From Escherichia coli 042 (GTDB taxonomy: Bacteria > Pseudomonadota > Gammaproteobacteria > Enterobacterales > Enterobacteriaceae), in assembly GCF_000027125.1 (NCBI RefSeq), contig NC_017626.1: 64,000 bases of DNA. One strand, given 5' to 3'. A program made the translations under genes and the position numbers. Shown here one piece after another: positions 1 to 47,624 of this stretch. Positions within the stretch are counted from its first letter, which is position 1. Every line of letters starts with the position of its first letter. Under the pieces are notes generated by a model. The model was not told where the DNA came from, searched no databases, and saw only the letters and a list, made by a program, of their open reading frames with translations.

Positions 1-101
<101 letters not shown>

Positions 102-296
102 TTAGCTCGAGCTTCGTATGGGGTATTGGCGCCTCGTCAGGCTTTACAGCCCGGTCATCGCAGTTCTATGTGAACTCTCGATTGCCAGGCCCAAATGCCA
201 AACCCGAGATTCTCAAAGGTGGCGTAGTATACGCTGACTCAGCGATGTGCTCAAGTCCCGAACAGACAAAGATCCCGAAGGATCGCGCATAGCGGG

Positions 297-971
297 TTAA
301 ATCCAGCCGCGTTCGGCAAAAGAAACATACTCTCCACGCCCAATCACGATATGGTCGAGCACGCGTAAATCCATGAACTGACAACTCTTTATTATCCGTT
401 CAGTAATGAGTTTATCCGCTTTACTGGGTTCAGCACAACCCGAAGGGTGATTATGTGCAAGGATCAGCGCCGAGGCATTTATTTTTATCGCTTCGCGGAT
501 AATTTCCCGAGGATGGACTTCAACATGGTTTAGCGTGCCGGAAAAAAGACGGCTATGCGTTATAACCCGGTGTTGTGAGTCGAGAAAGATCACCATAAAG
601 ATCTCCCGCTCTTCACCCGTGAGCTGGCTTTGTAAAAATTCCCTCGTCATCTCCGGGCTGAGTAAAGGGCTTTCTTCACGCATCCGCACGTTGTAGTAAC
701 GCCGCGCCAGTTCAGCAATCCCCTTTAACTGGGCAAATTTCGCCACGCCAATTCCATGAACGCCACTAAATTGTTCATATTCAGAGGTTAACAAGCCATA
801 AAGAGAGCCGAAATTCTCCAGCATCTCTTTTGCCAGGGTTAATACATCTTTACCGCGCGTTCCGGTACGCAGAAATAGCGCCAGCAGCTCGACATCCGTT
901 AAGGCGCTAATACCAAACTTCAGCATTTTTTCGCGCGGCATCAACAGCTGTGCATTGTTTTTCACCTTCAC
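297..971 (-). CDS. yicR: UPF0758 / RadC-like JAB-domain protein
   Basis: 224-aa ORF with the HNHPSG JAB/MPN motif; conserved position next to coaBC. Confidence 0.9.
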
Positions 972-1136
972 CTCCTTTGTGGTGCTCGCATCCTGTCATA
1001 GCCGTTCCGTTAAATCGACGGCCAGTTTTCAATCCTGGAAAGCGCCTCGCAAAGTGATTCTCAGGTGAAGGCACGACAACAAAAGTATTGTGATAAAATC
1101 GCCAACTTCTGGTGTCACCCAACAGGAAAAATCATC

Positions 1137-2357
1137 ATGAGCCTGGCCGGTAAAAAAATCGTTCTCGGCGTCAGCGGCGGTATTGCTGCCTATAAAACCC
1201 CTGAACTGGTGCGTCGTTTGCGCGATCGCGGGGCCGACGTCCGCGTAGCCATGACCGAAGCGGCAAAAGCCTTTATCACCCCACTTAGCTTGCAGGCGGT
1301 TTCTGGTTATCCCGTTTCCGACAGTCTGCTGGACCCGGCAGCCGAAGCCGCTATGGGCCATATTGAGCTGGGTAAATGGGCTGATTTAGTGATTCTCGCC
1401 CCTGCCACGGCAGATTTGATTGCCCGTGTTGCTGCCGGAATGGCGAATGATCTGGTATCGACGATTTGTCTGGCCACACCTGCGCCTGTAGCCGTGCTCC
1501 CCGCCATGAACCAGCAGATGTACCGTGCCGCTGCCACGCAGCATAATTTAGAGGTGCTTGCTTCCCGTGGTTTGCTCATCTGGGGGCCAGACAGTGGCAG
1601 TCAGGCTTGTGGTGATATCGGCCCTGGGCGAATGCTCGATCCGTTAACCATTGTTGATATGGCGGTAGCGTATTTTTCGCCCGTCAACGACCTGAAACAT
1701 CTGAACATTATGATTACCGCCGGCCCGACGCGTGAACCGCTCGATCCGGTGCGTTATATCTCTAATCACAGCTCAGGCAAGATGGGTTTTGCTATCGCCG
1801 CCGCCGCTGCCCGTCGTGGCGCGAACGTCACGCTGGTATCAGGTCCGGTTTCACTACCGACGCCACCGTTTGTTAAACGTGTTGATGTGATGACTGCGCT
1901 GGAAATGGAAGCGGCCGTGAATGCTTCTGTACAGCAGCAAAATATTTTTATCGGTTGCGCCGCCGTGGCGGATTATCGCGCAGCTACCGTGGCCCCAGAG
2001 AAAATCAAAAAGCAGGCCACGCAGGGTGATGAATTAACAATAAAAATGGTTAAAAACCCCGATATCGTCGCAGGCGTTGCCGCACTAAAAGACCATCGAC
2101 CCTACGTCGTTGGATTTGCCGCCGAAACAAATAATGTGGAAGAATACGCCCGGCAAAAACGTATCCGTAAAAACCTTGATCTGATCTGCGCGAACGATGT
2201 TTCCCAGCCAACTCAAGGATTTAACAGCGACAACAACGCATTACACCTTTTCTGGCAGGACGGAGATAAAGTCTTACCGCTTGAGCGCAAAGAGCTCCTT
2301 GGCCAATTATTACTCGACGAGATCGTGACCCGTTATGATGAAAAAAATCGACGTTAA
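1137..2357 (+). CDS. coaBC: Bifunctional phosphopantothenoylcysteine decarboxylase / phosphopantothenate-cysteine ligase
   Basis: ORF 1065..2357; start placed at the internal Met giving [20 protein letters not shown] (flavoprotein fold N-terminus); synteny yicR-coaBC-dut. Confidence 0.9.
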
Positions 2358-2793
2358 GATTCTGGACCCGCGCGTTGGGAAGGAATTTCCGCTCCCGACT
2401 TATGCCACCTCTGGCTCTGCCGGACTTGACCTGCGTGCCTGTCTCGACGACGCCGTAGAACTGGCTCCGGGTGACACTACGCTGGTTCCGACCGGGCTGG
2501 CGATTCATATTGCCGATCCTTCACTGGCGGCAATGATGCTGCCGCGCTCCGGATTGGGACATAAGCACGGTATCGTGCTTGGTAACCTGGTAGGATTGAT
2601 CGATTCTGACTATCAGGGCCAGTTGATGATTTCCGTGTGGAACCGTGGTCAGGACAGCTTCACCATTCAACCTGGCGAACGCATCGCCCAGATGATTTTT
2701 GTTCCGGTAGTACAGGCTGAATTTAATCTGGTGGAAGATTTCGACGCCACCGACCGCGGTGAAGGCGGCTTTGGTCACTCTGGTCGTCAGTAA
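2335..2793 (+). CDS. dut: dUTP diphosphatase
   Basis: 152-aa [39 protein letters not shown]; overlaps coaBC end; true start may be the second Met at 2338. Confidence 0.9.
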
Positions 2794-2899
2794 CACATAC
2801 GCATCCGAATAACGTCATAACATAGCCGCAAACATTTCGTTTGCGGTCATAGCGTGGGTGCCGCCTGGCAAGTGCTTATTTTCAGGGGTATTTTGTAAC

Positions 2900-3496
2900 A
2901 TGGCAGAAAAACAAACTGCGAAAAGGAACCGTCGCGAGGAAATACTTCAGTCTCTGGCGCTGATGCTGGAATCCAGCGATGGAAGCCAACGTATCACGAC
3001 GGCAAAACTGGCCGCCTCTGTCGGCGTTTCCGAAGCGGCACTGTATCGCCACTTCCCCAGTAAGACCCGCATGTTCGATAGCCTGATTGAGTTTATCGAA
3101 GATAGCCTGATTACTCGCATCAATCTGATTCTGAAAGATGAGAAGGACACCACAGCGCGCCTGCGTCTGATTGTGTTGCTGCTTCTCGGTTTTGGTGAGC
3201 GTAATCCTGGCCTGACCCGCATCCTCACTGGTCATGCACTAATGTTTGAACAGGATCGCCTGCAAGGGCGCATCAACCAGCTGTTCGAGCGTATTGAAGC
3301 GCAGTTGCGTCAGGTATTGCGCGAAAAGAGAATGCGTGAGGGTGAAGGTTACACCACCGATGAAACCCTGCTGGCAAGCCAGATCCTGGCCTTCTGTGAA
3401 GGTATGCTGTCACGCTTTGTCCGCAGCGAGTTTAAATACCGCCCGACGGATGATTTTGACGCCCGCTGGCCGCTAATTGCCGCACAGTTGCAGTAA
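2900..3496 (+). CDS. slmA: Nucleoid occlusion factor SlmA (TetR family)
   Basis: ORF 2858..3496; start placed at [17 protein letters not shown]; TetR-type HTH; synteny. Confidence 0.9.
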
Positions 3497-3501
3497 TATG
3501 A

Positions 3502-3525
3502 CGCCGGATGACTTTTCATCCGGCG
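3502..3525. terminator. Hairpin between convergent slmA and pyrE (likely bidirectional terminator)
   Basis: cgccggatg-actttt-catccggcg inverted repeat directly after the slmA stop and before the pyrE 3' end. Confidence 0.5.
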
Positions 3526-3532
3526 AGTTTCT

Positions 3533-4174
3533 TTAAACGCCGAACTCTTCGCGATAGGCCTTAACCGCCGCCAGATGTTCCGCCATTTCCGGCTTCTCTT
3601 CCAGGTAAGCAATCAGGTCTTTCAAGGTGATGATAGAGATCACTTTGCAGTTGTAATCACGCTCAACTTCCTGAATTGCCGAAATCTCGCCGCGCCCCCG
3701 TTCCTGACGATCGAGCGAAATCAATACGCCAGCAAGCGTCGCGCCATTGGCCTGAATAATTTCCATCGACTCGCGGATCGCCGTTCCGGCGGTGATCACA
3801 TCATCTACCAGCATTACGCGTCCTTGTAACGCGCTACCAACCAGATTGCCGCCTTCACCGTGGTCTTTTGCCTCTTTGCGGTTAAAGCAGTACGGCAGGT
3901 CAAGGTCATGATGCTCCGCCAGCGCCACGGCGGTAGTGGTCGCAATCGGGATCCCTTTGTAAGCAGGGCCAAACAGCAGATCGAACTCAATGCCGGAATC
4001 CACCAATGCTTCAGCGTAAAAACGGCCTAACAGTGCCAGATCGCGCCCGGTATTAAACAGCCCGGCGTTGAAGAAATAGGGGCTTTTGCGCCCGGACTTC
4101 AGCGTAAACTCGCCAAACTTTAACACCTGCTTGCTAAGCGCAAATTCAATAAACTGGCGCTGATATGGTTTCAT
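3533..4174 (-). CDS. pyrE: Orotate phosphoribosyltransferase
   Basis: ORF 3533..4189; start placed at [17 protein letters not shown]-binding motif [12 protein letters not shown]. Confidence 0.9.
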
Positions 4175-4204
4175 GCCTTCGCTCCTCATCTTACTTTTCT
4201 ACAG

Positions 4205-4233
4205 ACAAAAAAAAGGCGACTCATCAGTCGCCT
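4205..4233 (-). terminator. rph-pyrE intercistronic attenuator / intrinsic terminator
   Basis: On the minus-strand transcript, hairpin aggcgactgatgagtcgcct followed by a U-run (complement of A-run 4205-4213), sitting between rph and pyrE; agrees with the known pyrE attenuation mechanism. Confidence 0.6.
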
Positions 4234-4239
4234 TAAAAA

Positions 4240-4956
4240 TCAGTTTGCCAGCGCCGCCTTCTGCGTCGCTACAATGGATTCGATTCCCCCTCGGGCCAGC
4301 GCCAACAAGGTGAGCAGCTCTTCATGGGTGAACGGCTCGCCTTCTGCCGTCCCCTGCACTTCAATGATGCGCCCGTCTTCGGTCATCACTACGTTCATGT
4401 CGGTCTCTGCGGCTGAGTCTTCAACGTATTCCAGATCGCAAACCGCTTCGCCGTTCACAATCCCGACAGAAACTGCGGCTACCATCCCTTTCATCGGGTT
4501 GGTTTTCAGCTTGCCGTTTTCCACCAGCTTCTGTAGCGCATCTGCCAGCGCCACGCAGGCACCCGTAATCGACGCGGTACGAGTGCCACCATCAGCCTGA
4601 AGCACGTCGCAGTCCAGCGTAATGGTGAACTCACCCAGCGCTTTCAAATCTACTGCCGCACGAAGAGCACGGGCGATCAGACGCTGGATTTCCATGGTGC
4701 GTCCACCCTGCTTACCTTTCGCCGCTTCACGCGCGTTACGGGTGTGGGTAGAACGTGGCAGCATGCCGTACTCTGCGGTGATCCAGCCCTGGCCCTGACC
4801 TTTCAGGAAGCGCGGCACGCCTTCTTCAATAGAGGCGGTACACAATACTTTGGTATCGCCAAATTCGACCAGCACCGAGCCTTCTGCATGTTTTGTATAG
4901 TTACGAGTCAGGGTAACGGGACGCACCTGATTATTGCTACGGCCTGCTGGACGCAT
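4240..4956 (-). CDS. rph: Ribonuclease PH (apparently full-length)
   Basis: ORF 4240..4980; start placed at [15 protein letters not shown]; reading frame runs uninterrupted to ...ATQKAALAN. Confidence 0.9.
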
Positions 4957-5082
4957 ATTGAAATCTCCGGCTTGAAACAAATGTGGCTGCGCATTATACG
5001 GACTTCCGGCGGTTATTCCTATCCTGACAAGGCATCGATGGCTATAATCCTTCCACCTCTCCTTTTATAAACAGGAACGTCT

Positions 5083-5946
5083 ATGATCCGCAGTATGACC
5101 GCCTACGCCCGGCGTGAAATCAAGGGTGAATGGGGGAGCGCAACCTGGGAAATGCGCTCGGTAAACCAGCGTTATCTGGAAACTTACTTTCGTCTGCCGG
5201 AGCAGTTCCGTAGCCTTGAACCTGTCGTTCGCGAGCGTATTCGTTCTCGCCTGACGCGCGGTAAAGTGGAATGTACCCTGCGCTATGAGCCAGATGTTAG
5301 CGCGCAAGGTGAGCTGATCCTCAACGAAAAACTGGCTAAACAGCTGGTAACTGCCGCAAACTGGGTGAAAATGCAGAGTGACGAAGGGGAAATCAACCCG
5401 GTTGATATTCTCCGCTGGCCGGGGGTAATGGCAGCCCAGGAGCAGGATCTCGACGCGATTACCGCTGAAATTCTCGCGGCGCTGGATGGTACGCTGGACG
5501 ACTTTATCGTCGCACGCGAAACCGAAGGTCAGGCGCTGAAAGCATTGATCGAGCAGCGTCTGGAAGGCGTCACCGCCGAAGTGGTCAAAGTCCGCGCCCA
5601 TATGCCGGAAATCCTGCAATGGCAGCGTGAGCGTCTGGTCGCGAAGCTGGAAGATGCTCAGGTGCAACTGGAAAACAACCGTCTGGAGCAGGAGTTGGTT
5701 CTGCTGGCACAACGAATTGACGTTGCCGAAGAACTGGATCGCCTCGAAGCGCATGTCAAAGAGACCTACAACATTCTGAAGAAAAAAGAAGCGGTTGGTC
5801 GTCGTCTGGACTTTATGATGCAGGAGTTCAACCGCGAGTCGAACACTCTTGCGTCGAAATCTATCAATGCCGAAGTGACGAATTCTGCCATCGAGCTGAA
5901 AGTGTTGATTGAGCAGATGCGCGAGCAGATCCAGAATATCGAATAA
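5083..5946 (+). CDS. yicC: YicC family stress-induced protein
   Basis: 287-aa ORF MIRSMTAYARREIKGEWGSATWEMRS; synteny rph-yicC. Confidence 0.9.
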   Translation: MIRSMTAYARREIKGEWGSATWEMRSVNQRYLETYFRLPEQFRSLEPVVRERIRSRLTRGKVECTLRYEPDVSAQGELILNEKLAKQLVTAANWVKMQSDEGEINPVDILRWPGVMAAQEQDLDAITAEILAALDGTLDDFIVARETEGQALKALIEQRLEGVTAEVVKVRAHMPEILQWQRERLVAKLEDAQVQLENNRLEQELVLLAQRIDVAEELDRLEAHVKETYNILKKKEAVGRRLDFMMQEFNRESNTLASKSINAEVTNSAIELKVLIEQMREQIQNIE

Positions 5947-6009: not shown

Positions 6010-6053
6010 GTTATCATGAGCTATCATAACGACGCAACAAAGCGCACAATATG

Positions 6054-6077
6054 CGTGTACATAGAGGTGTACATAAT
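6054..6077. repeat. Left boundary direct repeat (candidate att / integrase-binding site)
   Basis: cgtgtacatagaggtgtacataat; recurs at 25959..25982 with 2 mismatches; further tgtacat half-sites at about 6085-6106. Confidence 0.5.
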
Positions 6078-6134
6078 GACTTTCATGTACATTGCTTTAT
6101 GTACACACCCATATTCGATATTCAGGTATTCGCA

Positions 6135-7394
6135 ATGCCAAAACTCACAGATATGCAGATCCGCGCATGGATAAAGGCGGGAGACAGATTTGATGGCAAG
6201 GCAGACGGCAACGGCCTTTATATTTGCTACCCAAAAAACTACACAGTCCCGTTCTGGCGATTCCGCTATAAGCTCGCAGGAAAGCAGCGGGCTATGGTTA
6301 TAGGCTCTTACTCCGAACTGTCACTATCAAAAGCCAGAGAAACAGCAAAAGAGCTGTCAGCCAGAGTTGCTCTTGGCTATGACGTAGCAGCAGAGAAACA
6401 GGAACGAAAAGCTGAAGCACTGGCAAAAATGGAGGCTGAGAAAAACGCCATGTGCGTTTCAGATCTGGCCGCCGAATACTTCGAGCGCCAGATACTTCCA
6501 AGATGGAAACATCCCGATATCCTTCGCCGGAGAATTGATAAGGATATTAACCCCTGCATTGGGCATATGAAGGTGGAGGACGTTAAGCCACGCCACATTG
6601 ACGACATGTTGAAAGGTATCGTTGACCGAGGAGCACCAACGATAGCAACAGATGTATTACGCTGGACACGCCGTATCTTTGACTATGGGATAAAACGCCA
6701 CGCTCTGGAGATAAACCCTTGTTCAGCGTTTGAAGTATCTGATGCTGGTGGTAAAGAGGTTTCCCGCGACCGTTGGCTAACTCGCGATGAGCTTATCAGG
6801 CTATTCGAAGCTATGCGCACCGCAAAAGGATTCAGCCGCCAGAACGAACTGACATTTAAGCTATTGCTGGCACTATGCGTTCGTAAGATGGAGTTATGCG
6901 CCGCACGATGGGAAGAGTTTGATTTAGATGGTGCGGTATGGCATTTGCCGGAAGAACGCAGCAAAAACGGAGACCCTATTGATATACCTCTACCTTCCCC
7001 AGCCGTTGAATGGTTGAGAGAGCTACACACCTTTTCATGTAATAGCGCATGGGTGCTTCCAGCCAGGAAGATGCAAAACAGAATGATCCCACATATTCAG
7101 GAAAGCACTTTGCCCGTAGCACTGGCTAAGGTTCGCGCCGAAATACCGGATGTGCCTAATTTCACGATTCACGACTTCCGACGCACCGCACGTACTCATT
7201 TAGCAGCGTTGGGTGTTGATCCTGTCGTGGCGGAACGATGCCTCAATCATCGCATTAAGGGCGTAGAGGGGATTTATAACCGCCATCAGTATTTTGATGA
7301 GCGTAAAGCAGCACTGGCACAGTGGGCTGATCTGCTGGTGGCACTGGAAAGCGGAAAAGACCACAACGTAACGCCTCTCAGAAGGGCGAACTAA
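6135..7394 (+). CDS. Tyrosine recombinase, P4-type integrase
   Basis: ORF 6051..7394; start placed at MPKLTDMQIRAWIKAGDRFDGKADGNGLY (typical P4-int N-terminal arm-binding domain); C-terminal catalytic region HDFRRTARTHL ... NHRIKGVEGIYNRH. Confidence 0.8.
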   Translation: MPKLTDMQIRAWIKAGDRFDGKADGNGLYICYPKNYTVPFWRFRYKLAGKQRAMVIGSYSELSLSKARETAKELSARVALGYDVAAEKQERKAEALAKMEAEKNAMCVSDLAAEYFERQILPRWKHPDILRRRIDKDINPCIGHMKVEDVKPRHIDDMLKGIVDRGAPTIATDVLRWTRRIFDYGIKRHALEINPCSAFEVSDAGGKEVSRDRWLTRDELIRLFEAMRTAKGFSRQNELTFKLLLALCVRKMELCAARWEEFDLDGAVWHLPEERSKNGDPIDIPLPSPAVEWLRELHTFSCNSAWVLPARKMQNRMIPHIQESTLPVALAKVRAEIPDVPNFTIHDFRRTARTHLAALGVDPVVAERCLNHRIKGVEGIYNRHQYFDERKAALAQWADLLVALESGKDHNVTPLRRAN

Positions 7395-30919: not shown

Positions 30920-33028
30920 TTGTATCTGTTTGAAAGCCTGAATCAACTGATTCAAACCTACCTGCCGGAAGACCAAATCAAGCGTCTGCGGCAGGCGTAT
31001 CTCGTTGCACGTGATGCTCACGAGGGGCAAACACGTTCAAGCGGTGAACCCTATATCACGCACCCGGTGGCGGTTGCCTGCATTCTGGCCGAGATGAAAC
31101 TCGACTATGAAACGCTAATGGCGGCACTGCTGCATGACGTGATTGAAGATACTCCCGCCACCTACCAGGACATGGAACAGCTTTTTGGTAAAAGCGTCGC
31201 CGAGCTGGTAGAGGGGGTGTCGAAACTTGATAAGCTCAAGTTCCGCGATAAGAAAGAGGCGCAGGCCGAAAACTTTCGCAAGATGATTATGGCGATGGTG
31301 CAGGATATCCGCGTCATTCTCATCAAACTTGCCGACCGTACCCACAACATGCGCACACTGGGCTCACTTCGCCCGGACAAACGTCGCCGCATCGCCCGTG
31401 AAACACTCGAAATTTACAGCCCGCTGGCGCACCGTTTAGGTATCCACCACATTAAAACCGAACTCGAAGAGCTGGGTTTTGAGGCGCTGTATCCCAACCG
31501 TTATCGCGTAATCAAAGAAGTGGTGAAAGCCGCGCGCGGCAACCGTAAAGAGATGATCCAGAAGATTCTTTCTGAAATCGAAGGGCGTTTGCAGGAAGCG
31601 GGAATACCGTGCCGCGTCAGTGGTCGCGAAAAGCATCTTTATTCGATCTACTGCAAAATGGTGCTCAAAGAGCAGCGTTTTCACTCAATCATGGACATCT
31701 ACGCCTTCCGCGTGATCGTCAATGATTCCGACACCTGTTATCGCGTGCTCGGGCAAATGCATAGCCTGTACAAGCCGCGTCCGGGTCGCGTGAAAGACTA
31801 CATCGCCATTCCAAAAGCGAACGGCTATCAGTCTTTGCACACCTCGATGATTGGCCCGCACGGCGTGCCGGTTGAGGTCCAGATCCGTACCGAAGATATG
31901 GATCAGATGGCAGAGATGGGTGTTGCCGCGCACTGGGCTTATAAAGAGCACGGCGAAACCAGTACTACCGCACAAATCCGCGCCCAGCGCTGGATGCAAA
32001 GCCTGCTGGAGCTGCAACAGAGTGCCGGTAGCTCGTTTGAATTTATCGAGAGCGTTAAATCCGATCTCTTCCCGGATGAAATTTACGTTTTCACACCGGA
32101 AGGGCGCATTGTAGAGCTGCCTGCCGGTGCAACGCCCGTCGACTTCGCTTATGCGGTGCATACCGATATCGGTCATGCCTGCGTGGGCGCACGCGTCGAC
32201 CGCCAGCCTTACCCGCTGTCGCAGCCGCTTACCAGCGGTCAAACCGTTGAAATTATTACCGCACCTGGCGCTCGCCCGAATGCCGCGTGGCTGAACTTTG
32301 TCGTTAGCTCGAAAGCGCGCGCCAAAATTCGTCAATTGCTGAAAAACCTCAAGCGTGATGATTCTGTAAGCCTGGGCCGTCGTCTGCTCAACCATGCGTT
32401 GGGTGGCAGCCGCAAGCTCAATGAAATCCCGCAGGAAAATATTCAGCGCGAGCTGGACCGCATGAAGCTGGCAACGCTTGACGATCTGCTGGCTGAAATC
32501 GGACTTGGTAACGCAATGAGCGTGGTGGTCGCGAAAAATTTGCAACATGGGGACGCCTCCATTCCACCGGCAACCCAAAGTCACGGACATCTGCCCATTA
32601 AAGGTGCTGATGGCGTGCTGATCACCTTTGCGAAATGCTGCCGCCCTATTCCTGGCGACCCGATTATCGCCCACGTCAGCCCCGGTAAAGGTCTGGTGAT
32701 CCACCATGAATCCTGCCGTAACATCCGTGGCTACCAGAAAGAGCCAGAGAAGTTTATGGCTGTGGAATGGGATAAAGAGACGGCGCAGGAGTTCATCACC
32801 GAAATCAAGGTGGAGATGTTCAATCATCAGGGTGCGCTGGCAAACCTGACGGCGGCAATTAACACCACGACCTCGAATATTCAAAGTTTGAATACGGAAG
32901 AGAAAGATGGTCGCGTCTACAGCGCCTTTATTCGTCTGACCGCCCGTGATCGTGTGCATCTGGCGAATATCATGCGCAAAATCCGCGTGATGCCAGACGT
33001 GATTAAAGTCACCCGAAACCGAAATTAA
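30920..33028 (+). CDS. spoT: Bifunctional (p)ppGpp synthetase/hydrolase SpoT
   Basis: 702 aa; TTG start as given by the ORF track; HD domain (HDVIEDT), RelA/SpoT synthetase and TGS/ACT regions. Confidence 0.9.
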   Translation: MYLFESLNQLIQTYLPEDQIKRLRQAYLVARDAHEGQTRSSGEPYITHPVAVACILAEMKLDYETLMAALLHDVIEDTPATYQDMEQLFGKSVAELVEGVSKLDKLKFRDKKEAQAENFRKMIMAMVQDIRVILIKLADRTHNMRTLGSLRPDKRRRIARETLEIYSPLAHRLGIHHIKTELEELGFEALYPNRYRVIKEVVKAARGNRKEMIQKILSEIEGRLQEAGIPCRVSGREKHLYSIYCKMVLKEQRFHSIMDIYAFRVIVNDSDTCYRVLGQMHSLYKPRPGRVKDYIAIPKANGYQSLHTSMIGPHGVPVEVQIRTEDMDQMAEMGVAAHWAYKEHGETSTTAQIRAQRWMQSLLELQQSAGSSFEFIESVKSDLFPDEIYVFTPEGRIVELPAGATPVDFAYAVHTDIGHACVGARVDRQPYPLSQPLTSGQTVEIITAPGARPNAAWLNFVVSSKARAKIRQLLKNLKRDDSVSLGRRLLNHALGGSRKLNEIPQENIQRELDRMKLATLDDLLAEIGLGNAMSVVVAKNLQHGDASIPPATQSHGHLPIKGADGVLITFAKCCRPIPGDPIIAHVSPGKGLVIHHESCRNIRGYQKEPEKFMAVEWDKETAQEFITEIKVEMFNHQGALANLTAAINTTTSNIQSLNTEEKDGRVYSAFIRLTARDRVHLANIMRKIRVMPDVIKVTRNRN

Positions 33029-33034
33029 TGTTTT

Positions 33035-33724
33035 ATGAACCCAACACGTTATGCACGTATCTGCGAAATGCTCGCCAGGCGGCAGCCTGATCTGACCGTC
33101 TGCATGGAGCAGGTCCACAAACCTCATAACGTTTCTGCGATTATTCGTACCGCAGATGCCGTTGGTGTACATGAAGTTCATGCTGTCTGGCCTGGTAGCC
33201 GGATGCGCACCATGGCTTCGGCAGCTGCGGGTAGTAACAGCTGGGTACAGGTGAAAACGCACCGCACCATTGGCGATGCCGTCGCTCATCTGAAAGGCCA
33301 GGGCATGCAGATTCTGGCAACCCATCTTTCTGATAACGCTGTCGATTTCCGCGAAATTGATTACACTCGCCCGACCTGTATTTTGATGGGACAGGAGAAA
33401 ACAGGCATCACGCAGGAAGCGTTGGCCCTGGCGGATCGGGACATCATCATTCCGATGATTGGCATGGTGCAATCGCTGAATGTTTCCGTTGCCTCAGCCC
33501 TCATTCTTTACGAAGCCCAGCGCCAGCGGCAAAATGCGGGCATGTACCTGCGTGAAAACAGCATGTTGCCGGAAGCAGAGCAACAACGCCTGCTGTTTGA
33601 AGGCGGCTATCCGGTGCTGGCGAAAGTCGCAAAACGCAAAGGCCTGCCTTACCCCCACGTCAATCAGCAGGGCGAAATTGAAGCCGATGCCGACTGGTGG
33701 GCCACTATGCAAGCTGCAGGGTAA
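33035..33724 (+). CDS. trmH: tRNA (Gm18) 2'-O-methyltransferase
   Basis: 229 aa MNPTRYARICEMLARRQPDLTVCMEQVHKPHNVSAIIRTADAVGV (SpoU fold). Confidence 0.9.
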   Translation: MNPTRYARICEMLARRQPDLTVCMEQVHKPHNVSAIIRTADAVGVHEVHAVWPGSRMRTMASAAAGSNSWVQVKTHRTIGDAVAHLKGQGMQILATHLSDNAVDFREIDYTRPTCILMGQEKTGITQEALALADRDIIIPMIGMVQSLNVSVASALILYEAQRQRQNAGMYLRENSMLPEAEQQRLLFEGGYPVLAKVAKRKGLPYPHVNQQGEIEADADWWATMQAAG

Positions 33725-33729
33725 GTACC

Positions 33730-35811
33730 ATGAAAGGTCGCCTGTTAGATGCTGTCCCGCTCAGTTCCCTAACGGGCGTTGGTGCAGCGCTTAGTAACAA
33801 GCTGGCGAAAATCAACCTGCATACCGTGCAGGATCTACTCTTACACCTTCCCCTGCGCTACGAAGATCGCACCCATCTCTACCCCATCGGAGAACTACTA
33901 CCGGGCGTTTATGCCACGGTAGAAGGCGAAGTACTGAATTGCAATATCTCCTTCGGCGGTCGGCGGATGATGACCTGCCAGATCAGCGACGGTTCCGGCA
34001 TTCTCACCATGCGCTTTTTCAACTTCAACGCGGCAATGAAAAATAGCCTGGCGACGGGCCGCCGTGTACTGGCTTATGGCGAAGCAAAGCGCGGTAAATA
34101 TGGTGCGGAGATGATCCACCCGGAATACCGCGTGCAGGGCGATCTCAGCACGCCAGAATTACAGGAAACGCTCACGCCGGTTTACCCAACTACGGAAGGC
34201 GTAAAGCAGGCCACGCTGCGTAAATTAACCGATCAGGCGCTGGATCTGCTCGACACCTGCGCCATTGAAGAACTCCTGCCGCCGGAACTGTCACAAGGAA
34301 TGATGACGCTACCGGAAGCGTTGCGCACTTTGCACCGCCCGCCGCCGACGCTACAGCTTAGCGATCTCGAAACCGGGCAGCATCCAGCACAACGCCGTCT
34401 GATTCTGGAAGAACTGCTTGCGCACAACCTCAGCATGTTGGCGTTACGCGCTGGTGCACAACGTTTCCATGCCCAGCCGCTTAGCGCCAATGACGCGCTG
34501 AAAAATAAACTCCTCGCAGCCTTACCGTTCAAGCCAACGGGCGCACAGGCACGCGTGGTGGCGGAGATCGAGCGCGATATGGCGCTGGATGCGCCGATGA
34601 TGCGCCTGGTACAGGGCGATGTAGGTTCCGGTAAAACGCTGGTCGCTGCCCTCGCCGCGCTGCGTGCGATTGCCCACGGCAAACAGGTGGCATTGATGGC
34701 ACCAACCGAATTACTCGCCGAACAGCACGCCAATAACTTCCGCAACTGGTTTGCACCGCTCGGTATCGAAGTGGGCTGGCTCGCCGGTAAACAGAAAGGT
34801 AAAGCACGGCTGGCACAGCAGGAAGCCATCGCCAGCGGTCAGGTGCAGATGATTGTCGGAACACACGCCATCTTCCAGGAACAGGTGCAGTTTAACGGCC
34901 TGGCGCTGGTGATTATCGACGAACAGCATCGTTTTGGCGTGCATCAGCGTCTGGCGTTATGGGAGAAAGGCCAGCAGCAGGGCTTCCATCCGCATCAGTT
35001 GATCATGACCGCGACGCCGATCCCCCGCACGCTGGCGATGACCGCGTATGCCGATCTCGATACCTCGGTGATAGATGAGCTGCCGCCAGGCCGCACGCCA
35101 GTGACGACAGTGGCAATCCCGGATACGCGTCGTAACGACATTATCGACCGCGTGCGCCACGCCTGTATGACTGAAGGGCGTCAGGCGTACTGGGTGTGCA
35201 CACTCATTGAAGAGTCAGAGTTACTGGAAGCGCAGGCGGCGGAAGCTACCTGGGAAGAGTTGAAACTGGCGCTACCAGAGTTGAATGTTGGTCTGGTACA
35301 CGGACGGATGAAACCAGCCGAGAAGCAGGCCGTCATGGCATCATTTAAACAAGGCGAGTTACACCTGCTGGTTGCCACTACCGTTATTGAAGTCGGCGTT
35401 GATGTGCCTAACGCCAGCCTGATGATTATCGAAAACCCGGAGCGTCTGGGTCTGGCGCAGTTGCACCAGCTTCGCGGGCGTGTAGGTCGTGGTGCGGTGG
35501 CTTCTCACTGCGTGTTGCTCTACAAAACACCGCTCTCTAAAACGGCGCAAATTCGCCTGCAGGTACTGCGCGACAGCAACGACGGTTTTGTGATTGCACA
35601 GAAAGACTTAGAGATTCGCGGACCGGGTGAACTGTTAGGTACGCGTCAGACGGGTAATGCTGAGTTTAAAGTGGCGGATTTACTGCGCGATCAGGCGATG
35701 ATCCCGGAAGTTCAGCGCCTGGCGCGACATATTCACGAACGTTACCCACAACAGGCAAAAGCCCTGATAGAACGCTGGATGCCGGAGACGGAACGTTACT
35801 CGAATGCGTAA
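33730..35811 (+). CDS. recG: ATP-dependent DNA helicase RecG
   Basis: ORF 33697..35811; start placed at MKGRLLDAVPLSSLTGVG; Walker A GDVGSGKT, DEQH box. Confidence 0.9.
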   Translation: MKGRLLDAVPLSSLTGVGAALSNKLAKINLHTVQDLLLHLPLRYEDRTHLYPIGELLPGVYATVEGEVLNCNISFGGRRMMTCQISDGSGILTMRFFNFNAAMKNSLATGRRVLAYGEAKRGKYGAEMIHPEYRVQGDLSTPELQETLTPVYPTTEGVKQATLRKLTDQALDLLDTCAIEELLPPELSQGMMTLPEALRTLHRPPPTLQLSDLETGQHPAQRRLILEELLAHNLSMLALRAGAQRFHAQPLSANDALKNKLLAALPFKPTGAQARVVAEIERDMALDAPMMRLVQGDVGSGKTLVAALAALRAIAHGKQVALMAPTELLAEQHANNFRNWFAPLGIEVGWLAGKQKGKARLAQQEAIASGQVQMIVGTHAIFQEQVQFNGLALVIIDEQHRFGVHQRLALWEKGQQQGFHPHQLIMTATPIPRTLAMTAYADLDTSVIDELPPGRTPVTTVAIPDTRRNDIIDRVRHACMTEGRQAYWVCTLIEESELLEAQAAEATWEELKLALPELNVGLVHGRMKPAEKQAVMASFKQGELHLLVATTVIEVGVDVPNASLMIIENPERLGLAQLHQLRGRVGRGAVASHCVLLYKTPLSKTAQIRLQVLRDSNDGFVIAQKDLEIRGPGELLGTRQTGNAEFKVADLLRDQAMIPEVQRLARHIHERYPQQAKALIERWMPETERYSNA

Positions 35812-35840
35812 AAGGCGGCGGTGAGAAGACCGCCGCTTCA
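35812..35840. terminator. Hairpin between convergent recG and gltS
   Basis: ggcggcgg-tgagaaga-ccgccgc directly after the recG stop. Confidence 0.5.
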
Positions 35841-35844
35841 TCGG

Positions 35845-37050
35845 TTAACCGGCAAAAATCGGCAACATTAAATACAGCTTAATCACCAGCGCGTTAACGA
35901 TATCAATAAAGAACGCACCGACCATCGGCACTACCAGGAACGCCATGTGCGACGGGCCAAAACGTTCAGTGATCGCCTGCATGTTGGCGATTGCCGTTGG
36001 CGTTGCACCGAGGCCAAAACCACAATGACCCGCAGCCAGCACTGCCGCATCGTAGTTTTTGCCCATCATGCGCCAGGTAACGAAGATGGCATACAACGCC
36101 ATGAAGATGGTCTGTACCACCAGAATCGCCAGCATCGGCAGCGCCAGCGAAGCCAGCTCCCATAGTTTCAGCCCCATCAGCGCCATCGCCAGGAACAACG
36201 ACAGGCTTACGTTACCAAGCACGGATACCGCACGCTCAAAGACGCGGTAAAAGCCCATCATTGACAGACCGTTGCTCAGAATCACGCCAACAAACAGTAC
36301 ACAGACGAAGGTCGGCAGTTCAAAAGCAGTGCCAGCCAAAAGTTGCGCAACAATTTTCCCCACCGTCAGGCAGATAGCAATCAGCGCGATAGTTTCAATC
36401 AGCACCAGCGAGGTGATCATGCGGCCCACATCCGGCTTTTCGAACGCCGTCGGGACTTCCTGGTCATCCGGAATACCGTTCGGCGTGGTGGAGTGTTTCA
36501 CCAGATAGCGCGCTACCGGACCGCCAATCAAGCCGCCCAGCACCAGACCAAACGTCGCACAGGCCATCGCCACTTCCGTCGCATTGGTGAAGCCATAACG
36601 TTCAATGAACAATTTACTCCATGCTGCTCCCGTACCGTGACCGCCGGAAAGCGTAATAGAACCGGCCAGCAGCCCCATCAGCGGATCAAGCCCTAACAGG
36701 CTAGCCATACCAATGCCAATGGCATTTTGCATCACCAACAGACCAACAACCACAATCAAGAAGATGCCAACCACACGCCCACCGGCACGCAAACTGGCAA
36801 TGTTGGCGTTCAGGCCAATGGTGGCGAAGAATGCCAGCATTAACGGATCGCGCAGGGACATATCAAAGTTGACTTCCCAGCCCATGCTTTTTTTCAGTAC
36901 CAGTAGCGCCAGCGCCACCAACAAACCACCCGCAACTGGTTCCGGTATGGTGTATTTCTTCAAAAAGGAGACGGAATGGACCAACTTACGCCCGAGCAGC
37001 AACGTCAGCGTTGCGGCAACAAGCGTTGCTAAAGTATCGAGATGAAACAT
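35845..37050 (-). CDS. gltS: Sodium/glutamate symporter
   Basis: 401 aa polytopic membrane protein MFHLDTLATLVAATLTLLLG; synteny. Confidence 0.9.
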   Translation of the reverse strand: MFHLDTLATLVAATLTLLLGRKLVHSVSFLKKYTIPEPVAGGLLVALALLVLKKSMGWEVNFDMSLRDPLMLAFFATIGLNANIASLRAGGRVVGIFLIVVVGLLVMQNAIGIGMASLLGLDPLMGLLAGSITLSGGHGTGAAWSKLFIERYGFTNATEVAMACATFGLVLGGLIGGPVARYLVKHSTTPNGIPDDQEVPTAFEKPDVGRMITSLVLIETIALIAICLTVGKIVAQLLAGTAFELPTFVCVLFVGVILSNGLSMMGFYRVFERAVSVLGNVSLSLFLAMALMGLKLWELASLALPMLAILVVQTIFMALYAIFVTWRMMGKNYDAAVLAAGHCGFGLGATPTAIANMQAITERFGPSHMAFLVVPMVGAFFIDIVNALVIKLYLMLPIFAG

Positions 37051-37328
37051 AGTTACTCCTTTGTATCCGCATCACTCTTTCATACTCGTCATACTTCATC
37101 GCGCAGTGGCAACTTATGAACTATGACGGGTATCGAGTTATGCTTTCCTGGGTCAAATTCTCAGCTGTTAATGAACAAATGGCATGGATTTTAAGCAGAA
37201 AAATACCAAAAGTTATATAAAAAAGTGCATTTATCTCATTTAAATATTTAGATGAGGATGTGGCAAACGTTTGCTTTTATCTTTCGGTCAGCTAAAATGC
37301 CCGCTTTGCTACCACGGGATTGTTTTCG

Positions 37329-38720
37329 ATGTCTGTTTCCACCCTCGAGTCAGAAAATGCGCAACCGGTTGCGCAGACTCAAAACAGCGAACTGATTTAC
37401 CGTCTTGAAGATCGTCCGCCGCTTCCTCAAACTCTGTTTGCCGCCTGTCAGCATCTGCTGGCGATGTTCGTTGCGGTGATCACGCCAGCGCTATTAATCT
37501 GCCAGGCGCTGGGTTTACCGGCACAAGACACGCAACACATTATTAGTATGTCGCTGTTTGCCTCCGGTGTGGCATCGATTATTCAAATTAAGGCCTGGGG
37601 TCCGGTTGGCTCCGGGCTGTTGTCTATTCAGGGCACCAGCTTCAACTTTGTTGCCCCGCTGATTATGGGCGGTACCGCGCTGAAAACCGGTGGTGCTGAT
37701 GTTCCTACCATGATGGCGGCTTTGTTCGGCACGTTGATGCTGGCAAGTTGCACCGAGATGGTGATCTCCCGTGTTCTGCATCTGGCGCGCCGCATTATTA
37801 CGCCGCTGGTTTCTGGCGTTGTGGTGATGATTATCGGCCTGTCGCTAATTCAGGTGGGGCTAACATCCATTGGCGGCGGTTACGCAGCCATGAGCGATAA
37901 CACCTTCGGCGCACCGAAAAATCTGTTGCTGGCAGGCGTGGTCTTAGCCTTAATTATCCTGCTTAACCGTCAACGTAACCCATATTTGCGCGTGGCCTCA
38001 CTGGTGATTGCGATGGCGGCCGGATATGCGCTGGCGTGGTTTATGGGCATGTTGCCAGAAAGCAACGAACCGATGACGCAAGAACTGATTATGGTACCAA
38101 CGCCGCTCTATTACGGCCTTGGCATTGAATGGAGTCTGCTGCTGCCGCTGATGCTGGTCTTTATGATCACTTCGCTGGAAACCATTGGCGATATCACGGC
38201 GACCTCTGACGTTTCCGAACAGCCAGTGTCCGGTCCGCTGTACATGAAACGCCTGAAAGGCGGCGTGCTGGCAAACGGCCTGAACTCGTTTGTTTCGGCG
38301 GTATTTAACACCTTCCCGAACTCCTGCTTCGGGCAGAACAACGGTGTGATCCAGTTGACCGGTGTTGCCAGCCGCTATGTCGGTTTTGTCGTCGCGCTGA
38401 TGTTGATCGTGCTGGGTCTCTTCCCGGCGGTGAGCGGTTTTGTACAACATATTCCAGAACCGGTTCTGGGCGGCGCAACGCTTGTAATGTTTGGCACCAT
38501 CGCCGCCTCCGGTGTGCGCATTGTGTCTCGTGAGCCGCTGAACCGTCGGGCGATTCTGATTATCGCGCTGTCGCTGGCGGTCGGTCTGGGCGTGTCTCAG
38601 CAGCCGCTGATTTTGCAGTTTGCCCCTGAATGGCTGAAAAACCTGCTCTCCTCCGGGATCGCCGCGGGCGGTATTACTGCCATCGTGCTGAATCTGATTT
38701 TCCCACCAGAAAAACAGTAA
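37329..38720 (+). CDS. xanP: Xanthine permease (NCS2 family)
   Basis: ORF 37320..38720; start placed at [18 protein letters not shown]; polytopic. Confidence 0.85.
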
Positions 38721-38840
38721 TTCACTGGCGGCGGTAAGATAATTACCGCCGCAGTCTCACCTCTTTCACCATTCCCGCCTTGAGGATTGCGCGTAAATCG
38801 TGCATAACTCCCTTATGTGCATTTCACGGGATGGAAGACC

Positions 38841-40550
38841 ATGAAATTTATTGGGAAGCTGCTTCTCTACATTCTCATCGCTCTGTTAGTGGTGATCGCT
38901 GGCCTCTATTTTCTTCTGCAAACCCGCTGGGGAGCAGAACATATCAGCGCATGGGTTTCCGAAAATAGTGACTATCATCTGGCCTTCGGGGCGATGGATC
39001 ACCGTTTTTCCGCGCCATCTCATATCGTGCTGGAGAACGTCACGTTTGGTCGTGATGGTCAGCCCGCGACCCTGGTGGCCAAAAGTGTCGACATTGCGCT
39101 AAGCAGTCGCCAACTGACCGAACCACGCCATGTCGATACCATCCTGCTGGAAAACGGGACGCTGAATCTCACCGACCAGACCGCGCCGCTACCGTTCAAA
39201 GCCGATCGTCTGCAACTGCGTGATATGGCGTTTAATAGCCCGAATAGCGAATGGAAACTGAGCGCGCAGCGGGTAAATGGCGGCGTGGTTCCGTGGTCAC
39301 CAGAAGCCGGTAAAGTGCTGGGTACGAAGGCGCAGATTCAGTTTAGTGCCGGATCGCTTTCGCTCAATGATGTTCCTGCCACCAATGTACTGATTGAAGG
39401 CAGTATTGATAACGATCGCGTTACGCTGACTAACCTGGGTGCCGACATCGCCCGCGGGACATTAACCGGAAACGCGCAGCGTAACGCCGACGGCAGCTGG
39501 CAAGTGGAAAATCTGCGCATGGCGGATATCCGTCTACAAAGCGAAAAATCGCTAACCGACTTCTTTGCGCCATTACTCTCTGTCCCGTCGTTGCAGATTG
39601 GTCGCCTGGAAGTCATCGACGCTCGCCTGCAAGGTCCGGACTGGGCGGTGACCGACCTCGATCTCAGCTTGCGCAACATGACCTTCAGTAAAGATGACTG
39701 GCAGACACAGGAAGGCAAACTGTCGATGAACGCTAGCGAGTTCATTTATGGTTCGCTGCATTTATTTGACCCGATTATAAACGCGGAATTTTCCCCGCAG
39801 GGCGTAGCGCTGCGCCAGTTCACCAGCCGCTGGGAAGGGGGCATGGTCAGAACGTCCGGAAACTGGCTGCGCAACGGGAAAACGTTGATCCTTGATGATG
39901 CGGCAATTGCCGGACTGGAATATACCTTGCCAAAAAACTGGCAACAGTTGTGGATGGAAACGACACCGGGTTGGTTAAACAGCCTGCAACTGAAGAGATT
40001 TAGCGCCAGCCGCAATCTGATCATTGATATCGACCCTGACTTCCCGTGGCAGCTCACCGCGCTCGATGGTTACGGTGCCAACCTGACGCTGGTTACCGAT
40101 CATAAATGGGGCGTCTGGAGTGGTTCGGCGAATCTGAATGCCGCCGCCGCGACATTCAATCGTGTTGATGTTCGTCGCCCATCGCTGGCGCTGACCGCCA
40201 ACAGCAGCACGGTGAATATCAGCGAACTGAGTGCATTTACTGAAAAAGGCATTCTGGAAGCCACCGCCAGTGTTTCACAAACGCCACAACGTCAGACCCA
40301 TATCAGCCTGAATGGACGCGGTGTGCCGGTGAATATTTTGCAACAGTGGGGATGGCCTGAATTACCGTTGACTGGCGACGGCAATATTCAGCTTACCGCC
40401 AGCGGCGATATTCAGGCCAATATCCCGCTGAAACCTACGGTTAGCGGGCAACTCCATGCCGTGAACGCCGCAAAGCAGCAAGTGACTCAAACCATGAATG
40501 CGGGCGTCGTTTCCAGTGGTGAAGTTACGTCGACGGAGCCGGTGCAGTAA
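38841..40550 (+). CDS. yicH: AsmA-family protein YicH
   Basis: ORF 38817..40550; start placed at MKFIGKLLLYILIALLVVIAGLYF (N-terminal membrane anchor). Confidence 0.85.
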   Translation: MKFIGKLLLYILIALLVVIAGLYFLLQTRWGAEHISAWVSENSDYHLAFGAMDHRFSAPSHIVLENVTFGRDGQPATLVAKSVDIALSSRQLTEPRHVDTILLENGTLNLTDQTAPLPFKADRLQLRDMAFNSPNSEWKLSAQRVNGGVVPWSPEAGKVLGTKAQIQFSAGSLSLNDVPATNVLIEGSIDNDRVTLTNLGADIARGTLTGNAQRNADGSWQVENLRMADIRLQSEKSLTDFFAPLLSVPSLQIGRLEVIDARLQGPDWAVTDLDLSLRNMTFSKDDWQTQEGKLSMNASEFIYGSLHLFDPIINAEFSPQGVALRQFTSRWEGGMVRTSGNWLRNGKTLILDDAAIAGLEYTLPKNWQQLWMETTPGWLNSLQLKRFSASRNLIIDIDPDFPWQLTALDGYGANLTLVTDHKWGVWSGSANLNAAAATFNRVDVRRPSLALTANSSTVNISELSAFTEKGILEATASVSQTPQRQTHISLNGRGVPVNILQQWGWPELPLTGDGNIQLTASGDIQANIPLKPTVSGQLHAVNAAKQQVTQTMNAGVVSSGEVTSTEPVQ

Positions 40551-40602
40551 AAATCAATCTCGCCGGGTACGACTCAGACGTACCCGGCATTCCGTCAATA
40601 GA

Positions 40603-42921
40603 TTACAACGTAATTGTCAGCGCATTCCCTTGAGGCGTCACCACCAGCCCCTGCTCACTTTCAGCCTGCGAACCGCCTTGCAGACCATTTACTTTCACAA
40701 CATTGCGCAAGCACAGTGTCCAGTTCTTCGCCTCGCCCGCACCAGTCACAGTAATCGTGTTACCAGTACGTGTTGCTTTTAGAGTAAAGATCACCGAACC
40801 GTCAGCAGCGGGCACTTCACAAAGAGCTTCATGCCCGTCTTGCAGATTAAAGAGATGGAATGCCGTGCCTTCGTGCCACGCGTAATCGGGACGTTGCTCG
40901 TTGTTGCCCAGCGCCAGTAGGGTGTTATCACGCACATAAACGGGCAGACTCAGGAAGCTGTGCTGCTGTTTATGCCAGCGACTACCATCGAGTTCATCGT
41001 TGTGCCACAGATGTGTCCAGCGACCTTCCGGCAAGTAGAACTGCACATCGCCCGCTTCAGTGAACACCGGAGCAACCATCACGTTGTCGCCTAACATGTA
41101 TTGACGGTCAAGGTAATCACAAGCCGGATCGTCCGGGAACTCCATCATCATGGCCCGCATCATCGGCGTACCCCGCGCGTTCGCACGAGCAGCTTCACGA
41201 TACAGATACGGCATCATGCGGCATTTCAGTTGCGTGAAGAAGCGCACCACATCACAGGACTCATCATCATAGGCCCACGGCACACGATAAGATTTGCTGC
41301 CATGTAAACGGCTATGGCTGGAGAGCAAACCAAACGCGCACCAGCGTTTGTAAACGTGCGCCGGAGCGGTATTCTCAAAGCCGCCGATATCGTGGCTCCA
41401 GAAGCCAAAACCTGAAAGGCCAATAGACAAACCACCGCGCAGGCTTTCCGCCATTGATTCGTAGTTAGCGTAACAGTCGCCACCCCAGTGTACCGGGAAT
41501 TTCTGCGCACCAACGGAGGCCGAGCGAGCAAACAAGACGGCTTCTTCCTGGCCAACGGTTTCCTTGAGCACGTTCCACACCAGTTCGTTGTAGATGTACG
41601 CATAATGGTTATGCATTTTCTGCGGATCGGAACCGTCAAACCATTGAACATCGGTTGGAATACGTTCGCCAAAGTCAGTCTTAAAGCAATCAACGCCCAT
41701 CGCGACCAGACCTTTCAGTTTGTCGGCGTACCATTTGCAGGCATCCGGATTGGTAAAGTCATAAATCGCCAGACCTGGCTGCCATTTATCCCACTGCCAC
41801 AGCGAACCGTCCGGGCGTTTGAGTAAATAGCCTTTCTCTTGTAACTCTTTAAAGACAGGGGATTTTTGCCCGATATAGGGGTTAATCCAGACGCAGATTT
41901 TCAGCCCTTTCGCTTTCAGGCGGCGGATCATCCCTTCCGGGTCCGGGAAAGTCAGCGGGTCCCACTCAAAATCGCACCACTGGAAGGCTTTCATCCAGAA
42001 ACAGTCAAAGTGGAAAACATGCAGTGGCAGATTGCGTTCCGCCATACCATCGATAAAGCTGTTTACCGTCGCTTCGTCGTAGTTGGTGGTAAATGAAGTG
42101 GTTAGCCACAGACCGAAGGACCACGCGGGCGGCAGCGCCGGACGACCAGTAAAACGGGTATAACGATCAAGTACCGCTTTCGGCGTCGGGCCGTCGATAA
42201 CAAAGTATTCGAGATATTCACTCTCAACGCTGAACTGCACTTTGGAGACTTTCTCCGCTCCCACTTCAAAAGAGACGCATTGAGGATGATTGACCAGTAC
42301 CCCATAACCACGGTTAGTCATATAGAACGGGATATTTTTATACGCCTGTTCAGTACTTGTGCCGCCGTCCCGGTTCCAGGTCTCTACCGTCTGGCCATTG
42401 CGCACCAGGGCAGTAAAGCGCTCACCCAGACCGTAAACTGTTTCGCCAACGCCAAGATCCAGCCGCTCAAACATATAATTTCGTTGATTATTCGTGTCCT
42501 GCACGTAGCCATTATTTTTCACCTGACTACCGGTAATACGTTCGCCGTTGCGCAGAAAATCCAGTGACCAGAACTCACCTTTGCTGACACGCGCGCTTAA
42601 GTTGCCACTTTTAAACTCAGCGTAACGTTCTGTGTTTTCGATTGTGACCTTCACGTCCTGCAAAATATTGAGCGGATAATGAGGACCGTTATTCAGCGCC
42701 CCCTGAAAATGCTCAATCCGTACACCGACAATACCTTCCTGTGGGGAGAAAAAGCGCAGCGTAAATAAAGGCGTATCAAGCTGCCAGGTTCGTTCACGCA
42801 CATCACGGGGGGCAGCATAGACCACCATTTCATTACCCTGCTGTTCAACCTCGAACACCTGAAGCGGGTGAATCAAATTGAGGCCAGGTTGAATCAACCA
42901 GTTTCCATCGCTAATTTTCAT
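40603..42921 (-). CDS. yicI: Alpha-xylosidase (GH31)
   Basis: 772 aa; GH31 catalytic region including WIDMNE-like and KTDFGE motifs. Confidence 0.9.
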
Positions 42922-42930
42922 TGCCGTTCC

Positions 42931-44313
42931 TTAGTTCTGCACTTCTTGAGAGGTGAATTGTTGCTGGCAACGGCGTTTGCCCTGGGCCAGCTGTTCCATA
43001 ACGGTTTTCAGATTGTGCGTCGTGAGTGAGTAGTAGCGTTTAGCGATAATCGCGCTCAGCAAATAACAGATCGCCGGAACAATCGTGAATAGCGCAATAA
43101 TGATGCTAATCGTGGCGCTGTTCTGCGCTTTTTCTGCCGCATCATATCCGCCATAAGCCAGCATCCAGCCGATAAGAGCGCCGCCGAAGGCCAACCCCAG
43201 TTTGAGCACAAACAGCGTGCCAGCAAAACTGATCCCGGTCAGGCGTTTACCATTGCACCACTCGCCGTAGTCGACGGTATCGGACATCATTACCCACTGG
43301 ATAGGTGTCACCAGTTGATGCAACACACCAATCACGAAGATGAAGACAAACATAGTGATGCTGGCCTGCATGGGAACAAAGAACATCGCGAGGCTAATCA
43401 CTGCCAGCAGGGCGTTCGTCCACCAGAAGATAGTGACTTTACATTTCCAGTCGGTCAGCGGTTTCGCCAGTGCGGAACCAATCAGGTTACCCACGCAATA
43501 AGTGGTAAGAAAAGCGACAAACACTTCCGGCGTACCCAAAATCCATGTGACGTAATACATCATCGCCCCGCCGCGTACGCACACCGCCAGGATATTGAAA
43601 ATGGTCAGTAAACCGACAATCCGCCACTGGTCGTTTTGCCAGATATCACGTAAATCTTCCCGCATAGACGTCGTTGTAGGTGGTGCTTCAACGCGTTCTT
43701 TAGTGGTGAAGAAACAAAATGCCAGCATCATAAATGCCACCACGGAAAGGACCGCGATACCGCCCTGGAAACCGAGTGGTTTATTATCACCACCAATTAA
43801 ATTAACCAGCGGCATCATCAGCACAGTAGAGAGCATGCCTCCCGCGGTCGCCAGCACAAAACGCCAGGATTGCAGCGAGATACGCTGAGTCGGGTCATTG
43901 GTGATTACACCACCCAATGCGCAGTAAGGGATATTAACGACAGTATAAAGTAAGGTAAGTAGGGTGTAAGTAATTGCTGCATAAATCATTTTTCCGTTCA
44001 TACTGAGATCTGGCGTGCTATAGGCCAGTACACAGACGATCCCGAATGGTAGTGCGCCAAACAGTACCCATGGACGAAATTTACCCCAGCGAGAGCGCGT
44101 TCGATCGGCCAACAACCCCATGCAAGGATCGGAAATCGCATCCAGTGCACGAGCGACCAAAAACATGGTTCCGACAAATCCGGCAGGAATGCCAAAAATA
44201 TCGGTATAAAAGAACATCATATATAACATTACGTTATCGAAAATAATGTGGCTGGCGGCGTCTCCCATGCCATAACCAATTTTCTCTTTAACGGACAACA
44301 CTTCACTCTTCAT
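42931..44313 (-). CDS. yicJ: GPH-family sugar:cation symporter
   Basis: ORF 42931..44370; start placed at MKSEVLSVKEKIGYGMGDAASH; co-directional with yicI. Confidence 0.85.
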   Translation of the reverse strand: MKSEVLSVKEKIGYGMGDAASHIIFDNVMLYMMFFYTDIFGIPAGFVGTMFLVARALDAISDPCMGLLADRTRSRWGKFRPWVLFGALPFGIVCVLAYSTPDLSMNGKMIYAAITYTLLTLLYTVVNIPYCALGGVITNDPTQRISLQSWRFVLATAGGMLSTVLMMPLVNLIGGDNKPLGFQGGIAVLSVVAFMMLAFCFFTTKERVEAPPTTTSMREDLRDIWQNDQWRIVGLLTIFNILAVCVRGGAMMYYVTWILGTPEVFVAFLTTYCVGNLIGSALAKPLTDWKCKVTIFWWTNALLAVISLAMFFVPMQASITMFVFIFVIGVLHQLVTPIQWVMMSDTVDYGEWCNGKRLTGISFAGTLFVLKLGLAFGGALIGWMLAYGGYDAAEKAQNSATISIIIALFTIVPAICYLLSAIIAKRYYSLTTHNLKTVMEQLAQGKRRCQQQFTSQEVQN

Positions 44314-44605
44314 CTGCTTTTCCTTGATGCTATAGGGGTGCTGAGACCGATAACGCATTTTGTAAACCATCCCTGTGAGAGCGAATATTCCGATATCTGG
44401 TTATTAATTTATGATTCTTGTTTTATGTGATCGTGGTAGCGTAAATTACGCTCATATATCATTGTAAAGTATGGGTTTTATATGAACTATAATGCTTTCG
44501 TGATAATACGCTGCGTGTATTAGGCGGAAAAAACTGATCTGGGGGATGTAGAAACTCAAGGAAGTAGCTATAATGCGCCCCGCCTCCATGTAGCAATCGA
44601 GGCGC

Positions 44606-47616: not shown

Positions 47617-47624
47617 GGATTAGA

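Follow-up and report, generated by a model that had tools for sequence, protein, structure and literature searches.

Organization of the rph-pyrE locus

rph encodes RNase PH, a phosphorolytic 3′-to-5′ exoribonuclease that acts on tRNA precursors by trimming their 3′ ends. Within the window, meaning the whole 64,000-nucleotide stretch analyzed, the gene lies on the minus strand upstream of pyrE and is followed by an intercistronic hairpin, with yicC transcribed divergently. The features of the locus are as follows.

3533–4174, minus strand: pyrE (orotate phosphoribosyltransferase), 213 codons with the ATG at 4174; 642 nt, as in MG1655
4205–4234, minus strand: rph-pyrE intercistronic attenuator; the terminator scan gives a 9-bp stem and a 4-nt loop (4234–4213), then eight T
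4240–4242, minus strand: TGA stop of rph; the attenuator hairpin begins 5 nt farther downstream
4240–4956, minus strand: rph coding sequence including the stop codon, 238 sense codons
4286–4290, minus strand: five consecutive G on the coding strand (positions 667–671 of the coding sequence; CCCCC on the plus strand)
5083–5946, plus strand: yicC, an open reading frame that is annotated in MG1655, MEI003, and SCU-316; divergent from rph

The rph coding sequence coincides exactly with the interval singled out in an earlier note on this DNA. It begins with ATG at 4956–4954 and ends with TGA at 4242–4240, and translation revealed no internal stop. A longer open reading frame (4240–4980) opens on TTG and carries eight additional codons upstream of this ATG; the ATG is the start annotated in all related genomes. 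Over 851 nt comprising rph and its flanks, the window is 100% identical to annotated intact rph in at least 10 complete E. coli genomes. These include strains MEI003 and SCU-316 (851/851 nt), where the product is catalogued as WP_001247093.1. pyrE is annotated as such in the 100%-identical genomes.

The attenuator hairpin is G+C-rich and sits between the rph stop and the pyrE start, as an attenuation unit requires. From the rph stop codon through the pyrE start, every base is identical to MG1655. A scan of positions 4100–5100 found no canonical sigma-70 promoter. A TATAAT hexamer occurs at 4998–4993 on the minus strand without a well-spaced −35 element, and no promoter is claimed there.

The rph product is a full-length RNase PH

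Beyond the reading frame, we examined the family membership of the encoded protein. Against the NCBIfam equivalog model for ribonuclease PH (TIGR01966), the product scores 380.8 bits (cutoff, 141.5), and residues 2–236 cover positions 1–235 of the 236 in the model. The two-domain RNase PH fold is present, with PF01138 spanning residues 10–140 (107.1 bits) and PF03725 spanning residues 157–222 (58.3 bits). Residues 2–237 align with the structure of RNase PH from Pseudomonas aeruginosa (1R6L, E = 3.7e-104). The native C-terminal segment, which is the part lost in the rph-1 allele, is formed by residues 224–238; these align with the 1R6L C-terminus and match the G-restored K-12 sequence at every residue. 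No E. coli chain was present in the structure hit list for the rph protein. The sequence also contains R86 and the segment G123-G124-T125-R126, which we take to be the phosphate-binding residues, as in the Aquifex and Bacillus structures.

Two residues of the protein, A138 and T216, differ from the K-12 allele, and these nonsynonymous differences could conceivably impair the enzyme despite its intact frame. We consider this extremely unlikely, given that WP_001247093.1 is annotated in unrelated isolates (MEI003 and SCU-316), that the TIGR01966 score lies far above the cutoff, and that A138 and T216 fall outside R86 and the GGTR motif. A quantitative difference in activity or stability between the RNase PH of the A138/T216 allele and that of K-12 rph+ is very unlikely. 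At the nucleotide level, only 293 of 5,424 genomes reach 99% identity or more to this allele over the 851 nt.

A run of five G distinguishes the window from MG1655

A three-way DNA alignment of rph located a single length difference at column 717: five G in the window and in strain MEI003, four in MG1655. MG1655 thus reads CGA-GGGG-AA, whereas the window reads CGA-GGGGG-AA. This indel is the only gap in the 5,946-bp BLAST block shared by the window and MG1655 (NC_000913.3). In the MG1655 record, rph is annotated as “truncated RNase PH,” and its translation of 228 amino acids ends in LALARGESNPL. The frameshift swaps the last 15 residues for 5 and brings in a stop 29 nt upstream of the native one, at a position equivalent to 4271–4269 of the window. 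The deletion that characterizes rph-1 (one G·C pair lost, 228-aa product) is absent from the window.

These results bear out the earlier note, which held that the RNase PH frame reads intact to its C-terminus: the product has 238 amino acids, the G-run has five residues against four in MG1655, and the match to TIGR01966 is full-length. When aligned with rph from MG1655 and from wild-type E. coli, the window displays neither a frameshift nor a premature stop, and it is identical to the at least 10 intact genomes mentioned above.

Distribution of intact rph and rph-1 in E. coli

To place the allele in context, 5,426 complete E. coli genomes were searched with an 84-nt probe taken from MG1655 across the deletion. 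The probe, which contains four G, was matched exactly in 168 genomes, such that 5,256 of 5,424 (~97%) lack the four-G allele. These 5,256 genomes match the probe at 95–99% identity, and the alignments sampled from them span 85 bases, corresponding to five G. Among the 60 of 168 exact matches listed, 59 have K-12-sized chromosomes of about 4.5–4.7 Mb. Most of these 59 are named MG1655, W3110, BW25113, J53, or HMS174, or their records designate a laboratory strain or a derivative; a few are unlabelled.

The same 60 listed matches include strain 2015C-3101, a 5.3-Mb human isolate with an exact four-G match (NZ_CP027221.1, positions 5051110–5051193). Its four G stem from slippage that arose independently in this G-run or from an error in sequencing the homopolymer. 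By this match, rph-1-like alleles are not limited strictly to K-12. With 60 of the 168 matches listed, exclusivity of rph-1 to K-12 is not established.

A separate deviation was seen in strain NBRC 3301 (NZ_CP048439.1, positions 67786–67839), where only bases 32–84 of the 84-nt probe were matched. Around the G-run, this strain has neither the rph-1 nor the wild-type sequence.

Length variation or errors at this G-run, as in 2015C-3101, raise the question of whether the fifth G in the window is itself a sequencing or assembly error that masks a frameshifted gene, homopolymers being prone to indels. Such an error would have to re-create the wild-type frame exactly. It would also have to do so in a gene where about 97% of complete genomes have five G and where the whole 851-nt stretch recurs unchanged in at least 10 genomes that were assembled independently. 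The chance that the fifth G is an artifact is therefore vanishingly small, and we treat the five-G frame as genuine.

The K-12 strains themselves were surveyed with a second query, in which the missing G alone was restored to the MG1655 rph region (872 nt). This K-12 rph+ sequence is 100% identical in C600, DH5alpha, NEB 5-alpha, DH1, DH10B, MC4100, and BW2952, and also in NCM3722, RR1, AG100, RV308, ER2796, and others. The literature agrees for further strains: JM83, JM109, and XL1-Blue are rph+ (PMC11148124); RR1/HB101 is rph+, with rph-1 first seen in W1485 (PMC5379014); and WG1 lacks the frameshift that EMG2, MG1655, and W3110 share (PMC9997739). rph-1 thus marks one K-12 sub-lineage, that of W1485 (including MG1655, W3110, BW25113, and J53), and not all of K-12. 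The earlier note had called the frameshift characteristic of common K-12 laboratory strains; the 3′-end frameshift of MG1655 is real, but the description applies to the W1485 branch only.

Given that many K-12 strains are rph+, an intact rph alone cannot exclude K-12. As the default state in E. coli, intact rph is unfit as a marker of non-K-12 origin. Of the two states, only rph-1 is informative, as its presence indicates the W1485 lineage.

The window compared with the corresponding region of MG1655

Whether the window derives from K-12 was addressed with a BLAST map of the window against 42 kb of MG1655, which divides it into six segments.

1–5946: collinear with MG1655; 98.7% identity, 77 mismatches
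5947–26051: absent from MG1655
26052–44702: collinear, dinD to selC; 97–98% identity
44703–55729: absent from MG1655
55730–59933: collinear, setC to yicS; 95% identity
59934–64000: absent from MG1655

Together, the three absent segments amount to about 35 kb of the window without a counterpart in the MG1655 region. In K-12, yicC directly adjoins dinD, selC directly adjoins yicT and setC, and nepI comes after yicS. In the window, a 20.1-kb and an 11.0-kb insertion, together with a different segment after yicS, break up this gene order. The rph gene also departs from the K-12 allele, which is common to MG1655 (apart from the missing G) and to rph+ K-12 strains: it carries 12 substitutions in 717 nt, two of which change an amino acid.

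These observations bear on the possibility that the window comes from an rph+ K-12 lineage such as DH10B, DH5alpha, MC4100, or NCM3722, a question on which the intact frame is silent. Such strains are common, and dozens of K-12 laboratory genomes match the G-restored allele at 100% identity. The 12 of 717 differences in rph with two amino-acid changes, the core identity of 95–98.7%, and the about 35 kb of non-K-12 DNA leave this origin with next to no probability, and we rejected it on the basis of the rph substitutions and the non-K-12 DNA.

The genes and boundaries of the absent segments that are referred to below are located at the following positions.

6051–7394: open reading frame of a tyrosine integrase, the first gene of the yicC island; the annotated start is equivalent to about 6135
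44606–44700: selC (tRNA-Sec)
44863–46044: integrase of the P4-like satellite
60237–60734: SicA/LcrH-type TPR chaperone
60981–62762: SipB/SseC-family T3SS translocon protein
62775–63926: 383-aa protein with no Pfam match

According to the BLAST map, collinearity with K-12 extends through yicC, where the first insertion interrupts it. This yicC island (5947–26051, 20.1 kb) starts directly after the yicC stop, ends before dinD, and has a G+C content of 47.1% compared with 52.8% in the flanking core. Imperfect repeats resembling CAGATCCA-GAATA are found at both of its junctions (5926 and 26043). Across 5,426 complete E. coli genomes, no record matches the window over its full length, and the best match to this island stands at 99.5% identity. 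Assigned through its 99.5% identity to SCU-316, the cargo includes a TOPRIM/DUF927 primase, P22-type DNA-ejection proteins, a PerC-family regulator, and a Doc-family toxin. When the island was used as a query, at least 80% of its length was held by only 49 of 5,426 complete genomes.

The second insertion is an 11-kb P4-like satellite integrated at tRNA-Sec (window 44606–55755). This selC island lies between 23-bp direct repeats that correspond to the tRNA-Sec 3′ end, at 44680–44702 and 55733–55755. The P4-satellite genes for the integrase, psu, sid, and primase were recognized by comparison with strain CNREC_004-43. Among complete E. coli genomes, the best matches to the selC region reach 96.6–98.2% identity with coverage of at most 87%; they cover the region only in part because the cargo from the integrase to psu differs. 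The variable slot of the satellite (46180–48551) holds two overlapping genes, which encode a 478-aa AAA_15/AAA_21 ATPase followed by a 312-aa DUF4435 protein. For the ATPase, the best PADLOC match is AriA (1.4e-32), and for the DUF4435 protein, the sole match is AriB (1.5e-15). By these assignments, the pair is a predicted AriA/AriB anti-phage defense system of the PARIS type.

The third segment (59934–64000) has a low G+C content (37.9%) and follows yicS at the place where MG1655 has nepI. In a related genome, the counterpart of this segment is followed next by an IpaD/SipD-family tip protein. The segment may resemble the ETT2-associated ‘eip’ translocator cluster that lies near selC in EAEC 042 and similar strains.

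The extra islands and T3SS genes that the earlier note had cited as context are real, as three segments absent from MG1655 and genes of T3SS type confirm. It is this context, not rph, that carries the argument against K-12. The note's proposal that an intact rph suggests a non-K-12 isolate arrives at the right conclusion, which stands on other evidence; the step from rph itself is weak owing to the many K-12 strains that are rph+. Judged from its sequence, the source is a non-K-12 strain, a conclusion resting on the rph substitutions, the core divergence, and the three absent segments, and not on the intact rph.

Consequences for attenuation and pyrE expression

The role of the hairpin as the pyrE attenuator was described by Jensen 1993, in the form quoted in passages of PMC11148124. 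As those passages and corresponding ones in PMC9997739 relate from the same work, read-through of the attenuator into pyrE requires tight coupling of rph translation to transcription, and the truncated rph-1 protein has no RNase PH activity. Both articles, in the passages concerned with rph-1, state that its premature stop uncouples the two processes, which lowers PyrE and results in partial pyrimidine starvation (PMC11148124, PMC9997739).

In the window, rph is the first cistron of the rph-pyrE operon, and ribosomes would read to the native TGA 5 nt from the hairpin. Because ribosomes would reach the native stop beside the hairpin, translation should stay coupled to RNA polymerase at the attenuator and permit normal, UTP-sensitive read-through into pyrE.

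In strain GN25 (NZ_CP139196.1), an IS200C-family element lies between rph and pyrE at positions 89252–90813, in the region that holds the attenuator. This element could alter pyrE expression in GN25.

In the window, the frame is intact, the protein is a full-length member of its family, and the attenuator and pyrE start are the same as in K-12. We conclude that this is almost certainly a normal, functional rph allele in a non-K-12 E. coli, with enzymatic activity and pyrE expression extrapolated from work on K-12. By analogy with that work, we predict an RNase PH-positive strain that escapes the partial pyrimidine starvation affecting MG1655 and W3110. The gene is an ordinary wild-type housekeeping gene that is already known, and there is no anomaly in the gene, its stop, the attenuator, or pyrE. 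In practical terms, the source strain should have normal RNase PH and a normal rph-pyrE arrangement, and the pyrimidine-limitation artifact familiar from MG1655 and W3110 is not expected.

Comparison with known rph alleles and RNase PH enzymes

Solved RNase PH structures come from orthologues in other genera, namely P. aeruginosa (1R6L/1R6M), B. subtilis (1OYP), and Aquifex aeolicus (1UDN). Within E. coli, the rph-1 strains (MG1655, W3110, W1485, BW25113, and J53) share the locus with the window, including pyrE downstream and a divergent yicC. The alleles part at the C-terminus, where the rph-1 product stops at 228 amino acids with ESNPL and the window's rph continues to 238 amino acids with its native 15-residue end. 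The rph+ K-12 lineages outside the W1485 branch (DH10B, DH5alpha, DH1, C600, MC4100, NCM3722, and RR1) have an intact 238-codon frame, like the window; the K-12 protein carries V138 and I216, in contrast to A138 and T216 in the window. The closest counterpart is wild-type E. coli rph as found in MEI003 and SCU-316 (238 aa, WP_001247093.1), with which the window agrees without any difference in length, stop, attenuator, and pyrE.
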